Virus genome (UHGV): UHGV-0256785
Origin: a virus
Length of the DNA: 26,660 nt
Strand: one strand, 5' to 3'
This document shows positions 7,111 through 7,585 of this stretch, in pieces. The position numbers were made by a program, and so were the translations under genes. Positions within the stretch are counted from its first letter, which is position 1, and each line of letters begins with the position of its first letter. The notes beneath the pieces were generated by a model. The model did not search any database. It was not told where the DNA came from and saw nothing but the letters and a program-made list of their open reading frames with translations.

Positions 7111-7389
7111 CATGTTAAAAAAGATTGCGGCATTACAGCAGCCCTTCACACTGAGGGGCTGCGATAATGTGAGAAATAAAAAACCGGCAGGGGAAATCCA
7201 TTGAAGATTTGCCGGTGGCAAAAAGATGGCCATGCTTTCAACCTTAGTCGCAGGGTTACGGAGTGCAACTACGAATGCTGCCGGTATATGGCTGAATAGC
7301 GTTTCAATGATGTACGTCATCTTATCTGTAAATGTTAATGATAAATGCTCTCATTTGTGCGGGTCCTTCCGGTGGGGTGGCCTGCCACG

Positions 7390-7401
7390 GGGCGGGAGCG
7401 T
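7390..7401. other. candidate cosN (12 nt cohesive end GGGCGGGAGCGT) within a cos region
   Basis: ACGGGGCGGGAGCGTCGCGG matches the lambda cosN region ACGGGGCGGCGACCTCGCGGG at 16 of 21 positions (lambda sequence recalled from memory); lies ~195 nt upstream of the terminase small subunit start, as in lambda. Confidence 0.4.
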
Positions 7402-7585
7402 CGCGGAAAACGGCTGATTTTTGAATTTTCATGGCGGCGGCAGCATGTGTGATAATTCATTGATAATTAAAAATTATTTCCGCTTTCACCTGTACAATCT
7501 TTTTTTCTCCCTGTCATTAGACCAGTTTGTAATTAATTGAAATATATAAATAAATATGGTTTTCACCTGCCAGATGGAGTTGCCT

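Follow-up and report, generated by a model that had tools for sequence, protein, structure and literature searches.

We find that the interval from position 7361 to about 7570 of the window, the whole 26,660-nt stretch of DNA that was analysed, is very probably the cosQ-cosN-cosB cohesive-end site of a lambdoid prophage of the cdtI/Tritos type, working by the mechanism set out below. Sequence elements, their conservation, protein families and the layouts of related records were seen directly. The window is the late region of a lambdoid prophage, in which genes for a RusA-like resolvase, a DNA methyltransferase, two holins and an endolysin are followed by a terminator hairpin and then by cos, which sits between the lysis genes and the gene for the small terminase subunit (TerS), as in lambda. 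The site is of an already known kind, in effect a known sequence, and is ordinary in E. coli prophages; natural cosN variation among lambda-like phages has already been surveyed (Vahanian 2017, in the part relayed by PMC9303873). It sets the two ends that the packaged genome of this prophage would have, which is of use for annotation, for genome orientation and for interpreting read pile-ups in viromes, with nothing new in kind.

The cut site, cosN, lies on the + strand, where the 20-mer ACGGGGCGGGAGCGTCGCGG occupies 7387-7406 and the 12-mer GGGCGGGAGCGT occupies 7390-7401; a CG on either side of the 12-mer extends the element to 7388-7403. Read across, the window has ...GCGGGTCCTTCCGGTGGGGTGGCCTGCCACG GGGCGGGAGCGT CGCGGAAAACGGCTGATTTTTG..., and the joined right and left ends of the lambda reference (NC_001416) have GGGTCCTTTCCGGTGATCCGACAGGTTACG GGGCGGCGACCT CGCGGGTTTTCGC. 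The window 12-mer equals lambda GGGCGGCGACCT at overhang positions 1-6 and departs from it at four positions (7 C>G, 8 G>A, 9 A>G, 11 C>G), one fewer than the five claimed by the first-pass annotation. A pattern consisting only of the bases common to the window and lambda, ACGGGGCGGNNNCNTCGCGG, has one exact match in the window, at cosN, and its chance expectation with up to two mismatches was 0.00 in 100 dinucleotide-preserving shuffles. As expected of a lambda-type cosN, the presumptive nick sites are 12 bp apart, each follows a 5′-CG, and the overhang starts with GGGC. By analogy with lambda, the top strand would be nicked at 7389/7390 and the bottom strand at 7401/7402, for predicted 5′ overhangs of GGGCGGGAGCGT at the left end and ACGCTCCCGCCC at the right end. 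This transfer of nick positions rests on conservation of the DNA, because the large terminase subunit (TerL) shares just 24% identity with lambda gpA, and TerS no detectable sequence similarity with Nu1. Counted from the sequence, the rotational symmetry of cosN is 8 of 16 bp in the window and 10 of 16 in lambda.

Conserved sequence continues on both sides of the cut site. To the left, the alignment runs on into the cosQ-like GGGTCCTTCCGGTG (7361-7374), present once in the window, which opens with a cosQ heptamer, GGGTCCT (7361-7367, + strand), identical to the lambda heptamer at the same place. It lies roughly 30 bp upstream of the predicted top-strand nick, at a distance of 29 nt in the window and 30 nt in lambda, and GGGTCC or AGGTAC stands 29-30 nt before the nick in 11 of 12 non-redundant lineages. 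If the role established by lambda genetics (PMC4669245) carries over, cosQ would serve as the packaging-termination signal. To the right, a cosN-proximal block, CGCGGAAAACGGCTGATTTTT (7402-7422, + strand), follows the consensus CGCgG.aa.cggCT..TTtT, which spans Escherichia, Klebsiella, Citrobacter, Hafnia, Providencia, Xenorhabdus, Rahnella and Pantoea. The block is common to all cosB classes that have this cosN and may help to position terminase on it. The window also has the lambda order cosQ-cosN-cosB-TerS-TerL, the 12-nt stagger and the flanking CG, and in both phages an IHF site follows the first R-like block and TerS starts near +190 (lambda layout: PMC9026076).

The adjoining genes encode a terminase suited to such a site. 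TerS (7586-8122, + strand, 178 aa) belongs to the DUF1441 family (PF07278, E 2.8e-43), a Pfam family other than that of its lambda counterpart, and to PHROG 141 'terminase small subunit' (E 2.4e-64). Its likely start is ATG 7586, preceded by GGAG and 196 nt from cosN, in agreement with the earlier estimate of about 195 nt; the first ATG of the open reading frame is at 7556, 166 nt from cosN. The closest TerS in the protein database, from E. coli, is 99% identical and has 178 aa, the length predicted from ATG 7586. No sequence similarity to lambda Nu1 was detectable, which leaves TerS outside the Nu1 family, and single-sequence and profile searches of the PDB returned nothing meaningful. An AlphaFold model built from 42 homologues (mean pLDDT 82) places a strand, two helices, a beta-hairpin and a further helix at the N-terminus (pLDDT ~90), followed by long helices, and the compact structural matches of this N-terminal domain are MerR-like winged-helix DNA-binding domains. 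The DNA-binding domain of Nu1 is likewise a MerR-like winged helix; TerS therefore probably works like Nu1 although it stands outside that sequence family.

Downstream, TerL (8122-10221, + strand, 699 aa) is an ATPase and endonuclease of the gpA family, with both PF05876 (E 3.6e-81) and PF20454 (E 1.4e-85) far above cut-offs and the C-terminal endonuclease present. BLASTP aligns it with lambda gpA at 24% identity over 624 columns (E 2e-22), and it is the enzyme expected to nick cosN. A TerL so distant from that of lambda, paired with a TerS of another family, nonetheless goes with a cosQ and a left cosN half almost unchanged from those of lambda. The gene for a lambda-family portal protein follows (10430-11935, + strand; PF05136, E 2.1e-81). 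Inside it, at 10587-10606, we noted a second cosN-like match, ACGGGGCGGTTTCCCTGCGG, with two mismatches to the lambda-shared pattern; this match is probably due to chance, because the homologous stretch in relatives, ACGGGGCCGTGTCGTTACGT, loses the pattern.

The closest named relatives are Enterobacteria phage cdtI (AB285204 / NC_009514) and Escherichia phage Tritos (OV696610), whose GenBank records both start with GGGCGGGAGCGT and finish with ...CCTGCCACG. The cosQ-cosN core of the window (about 46 bp; 7361-7409) is identical to that of cdtI; Tritos differs from it in the cosQ-flanking bases, and its stretch upstream of cosQ is unlike that of the window. Both phages share the cosB class of the window, with cosB ~91%, TerS ~94% and the DNA from cos to TerL ~92% identical, and differ from it in a few cosB substitutions, for example AAAACGGCTGA versus AAAAAGGCTAG. 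Tritos makes plaques and virions (PMC9928086); the same paper contains no description of end determination. For phage Ayreon, cos packaging has been predicted solely from TerL phylogeny. Of 5426 complete E. coli genomes, 2074 (~40%) have a similar cos region, with only ~93% identity over it in the best of them, and the exact 21-mer CACGGGGCGGGAGCGTCGCGG occurs in more than 120 IMG/VR contigs. In a set with one genome per species, the 21-mer is confined to E. coli, E. ruysiae and two probably mis-binned metagenome-assembled genomes, which makes this cosN allele an Escherichia allele. Those two assemblies, labelled Veillonella parvula (L137) and Bacillota bacterium (L139), carry a cos and terminase region ~94% identical to that of the window, probably through binning contamination by an E. 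coli prophage. Literature searches with the exact 12-mer, its reverse complement and the 12-mer of Salmonella phage Gifsy-1 returned only unrelated papers on G-quadruplexes and primers.

Conservation of the cosN frame extends well beyond Escherichia. A gapless alignment centred on the nick covered 12 non-redundant lineages, namely lambda, Gifsy-1 and ten that carry the TerS family of the window (the window itself, Providencia PSTCR8lys, two from Klebsiella, and one each from Xenorhabdus, Rahnella, Pantoea, Citrobacter, Hafnia (yong2) and Halomonas), leaving out Gifsy-2 and VT1-Sakai, which misfit the frame. The resulting consensus is ccacG / GGGc.Gc...ct / CGCgG.aa.cggCT..TTtT; the 12-nt spacing between the flanks is present in all 12, and the overhang is conserved in its left half but variable in its right. 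Lambda-like cosN sites have been described as combining a conserved cosQ and flanking CG with variation at bp 7-12, Gifsy-1 differing at 8, 9 and 11 (PMC4669245), and the part of Vahanian 2017 relayed by PMC9303873 describes the same asymmetric pattern. At the level of sequence, the window and the lineages aligned with it match this asymmetry.

Individual members of the set bear closer comparison with the window. Gifsy-1, counted among the lambda-like cohesive-end phages (PMC4669245), has a cosN, GGGCGGCAGCGT, that shares 11 of 12 overhang bases, cosQ and the flanks with the window, the sole difference being a C in place of G at overhang position 7; its TerS is annotated as a homologue of Nu1/phage 21, whereas that of the window is DUF1441. 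The record of Hafnia phage yong2 starts right after its 12-mer and closes with it, which gives independent support for the position of the right-hand nick. For mEp213 and LLS, a 12-nt 5′ end, GGGCGGCGCGCT, has been inferred in print (PMC12315714). Sites of this mEp213 / LLS / Klebsiella Kp4865-4 type have a DUF1441 TerS (~42% identical to that of the window in mEp213), cosQ, flanks and cosN-proximal block as in the window, but differ at overhang positions 7-9 and 11, in cosB and in the recognition domain of TerS. The proposal of the first-pass annotation that a lambda-type cosN with a 12-nt 5′ end lies here is thus upheld by cosQ, the nick-flanking CG, a gpA-family TerL, the cdtI/Tritos layout and the cross-genus 12-nt frame.

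Between cosN and the TerS gene lie a perfect IHF consensus, two copies of TTTCACCTG and a duplicated 40-nt unit, which together form the putative cosB. The element nearest the cut is a candidate R3-like TerS site, GCAGCATGTGTGA (7440-7452, + strand; +51 to +63), whose position matches that of lambda R3 (bp 50-65; PMC9026076). Providencia and Xenorhabdus have a GCAGCAnGTG block equally far from the nick (GCAGCAGGTG), as does Rahnella apart from one mismatch (GCAGCACGTC), and all three carry a TerS closely related to that of the window. The IHF-consensus site TATCAATGAATTA follows directly (7453-7465, - strand; +64 to +76), with 0 mismatches to WATCAANNNNTTR; the window has just one other perfect match. 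The site shares its strand with the best match in lambda (+79, one mismatch) and lies 15 nt nearer the nick, close to the position of lambda I1. An ATTGAT core occupies this place in cosB classes A, B and C, and ATTGAA in class D.

The perfect IHF site opens the first 40-nt unit (7453-7492), which closes with copy 1 of TTTCACCTG (7484-7492, + strand), a candidate TerS-binding R site. The second unit (7530-7569, + strand), 77 nt downstream and 73% identical, likewise opens with an IHF-like site (TTTCAATTAATTA, 7530-7542, - strand, one mismatch) and closes with TTTCACCTG (7561-7569, + strand). Because both TTTCACCTG copies are direct, the candidate R sites form no clean lambda-like R3/R2/R1 triplet, and their identities and orientations are putative readings of sequence; the sister class B has a clear R3 / IHF / inverted R2 / R1 pattern. 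The 40-nt direct repeat suggests a duplicated cosB module, an IHF-like site joined to TTTCACCTG, unlike the R3-I1-R2-R1 layout of lambda. A short way upstream of the TerS start stands TTCACCTG, which is found as well in the Providencia, Xenorhabdus, Rahnella and Citrobacter relatives.

In the mechanism that we propose, once induction has led to concatemers, the winged-helix domain at the N-terminus of TerS would bind cosB, aided by an IHF bend at 7453-7465, and TerS would place the gpA-family TerL on cosN. TerL would then nick the two strands at the predicted positions and the strands would part, after which the left end bearing 5′-GGGCGGGAGCGT would be threaded into the prohead. Packaging would proceed rightward, taking in the terminase and head genes, until it reached the next cos; the terminal cut there would require cosQ, and the ends would anneal after injection.

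Among other readings of the site, a chance resemblance to lambda cosN in a phage that packages by the headful (pac) mechanism is effectively refuted. We found no support for it, and a resemblance with 0.00 expected matches stands alongside cosQ, an IHF site and a terminase of the gpA family, and is kept across genera exactly upstream of TerS; neither the TerL family nor the conserved cosN is that of a headful phage. Another reading is a genuine cos site with the nicks placed differently, at another overhang length or shifted by a base or two. The spacing from CACG to CGCGG is 14 nt in Gifsy-2 (L127, ~505-535) and 11 nt in VT1-Sakai (L131, ~360-390), both with the same TerS family, which means that the 12-nt frame is not universal; overhang length or nick placement may differ in these two phages, or their sites may have decayed. 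A 9-nt end has moreover been measured in a cyanophage of a lineage with a DUF1441-like TerS, and the virion-derived record of mEp460_4F5 (LR595868; L133, 1-30) starts 5 nt left of the predicted nick with 2 nt deleted inside cosN (GGGCGGGAGCG-CGG), features that resemble an artefact of assembly at the physical ends of the DNA. Against these cases, the CG-flanked 12-nt frame is exact here and in the 12 anchored lineages, the cdtI and Tritos records have both their ends on it, and the yong2 boundaries bracket that phage's own 12-mer at the corresponding point, so we regard shifted nicks as very improbable.

The weightiest alternative, though still an unlikely one, is that the site is a true cos by descent inside a defective prophage that makes neither particles nor ends. 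Many lambdoid prophages of E. coli are defective, the window covers part of the prophage and leaves out integrase, repressor and replication genes, and with the best complete E. coli genomes at ~93% identity no characterised strain vouches for it. On the other hand, TerS, TerL (at 699 aa, the length in cdtI) and the portal gene are intact, long open reading frames continue through the tail region, and the cosQ-cosN core is that of the plaque-forming Tritos apart from the bases flanking cosQ.

A comparison of related loci bears on a further suggestion of the first-pass annotation, namely that the phages able to cross-package this DNA can be read from its end sequence. In the IMG/VR set the core is constant from cosQ to about +35, with several unrelated types of left flank and at least four cosB classes to the right, each paired with its own N-terminal helix-turn-helix of TerS (loci L007-L126, for example L007, L014 and L037); the C-terminal halves of TerS in classes B, C and D are almost identical. 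The suggestion finds no support here: at least four classes of cosB and TerS N-terminus go with one and the same cosN 21-mer, and the overhang is for this reason no predictor of cross-packaging, only of which ends can anneal. Packaging specificity in lambda-like phages lies in cosB and the recognition helix of TerS, a mismatch between the cohesive ends leaves a phage viable, and lambda DNA has been packaged by an N15-specific terminase (PMC4669245). From sequence comparison, it looks as though specificity modules, made up of cosB and the N-terminal domain of TerS, have been swapped with the cos core as the constant joint. Module swapping of this sort is known for lambda and phage 21.

More speculatively, and with the odds against it, DUF1441 TerS proteins may define several packaging specificities outside the lambda, 21 and N15 types on one common cosQ-cosN core, with class A, that of the window, using cosB through its duplicated module of IHF site and TTTCACCTG, and with the conserved 75-bp core doubling as a recombination joint. 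If this were true, prophages would exchange head genes and upstream late genes in new combinations at that joint.

No promoter-like site was found around cos, and an Rfam search gave only sub-threshold matches, caused by the terminator-like hairpin at 7088-7108. This strong, bidirectional hairpin (9 pairs, 6 of them GC) lies just after a small open reading frame (6853-7068) and ~280 nt upstream of cosN. Two further frames run over the cos region, 7226-7417 (+ strand, 63 aa) and 7069-7320 (- strand, 83 aa), without a Pfam match to either. Hypothetical proteins are annotated across the homologous stretch of phage HannyBb; in the window, both frames are probably spurious gene calls.
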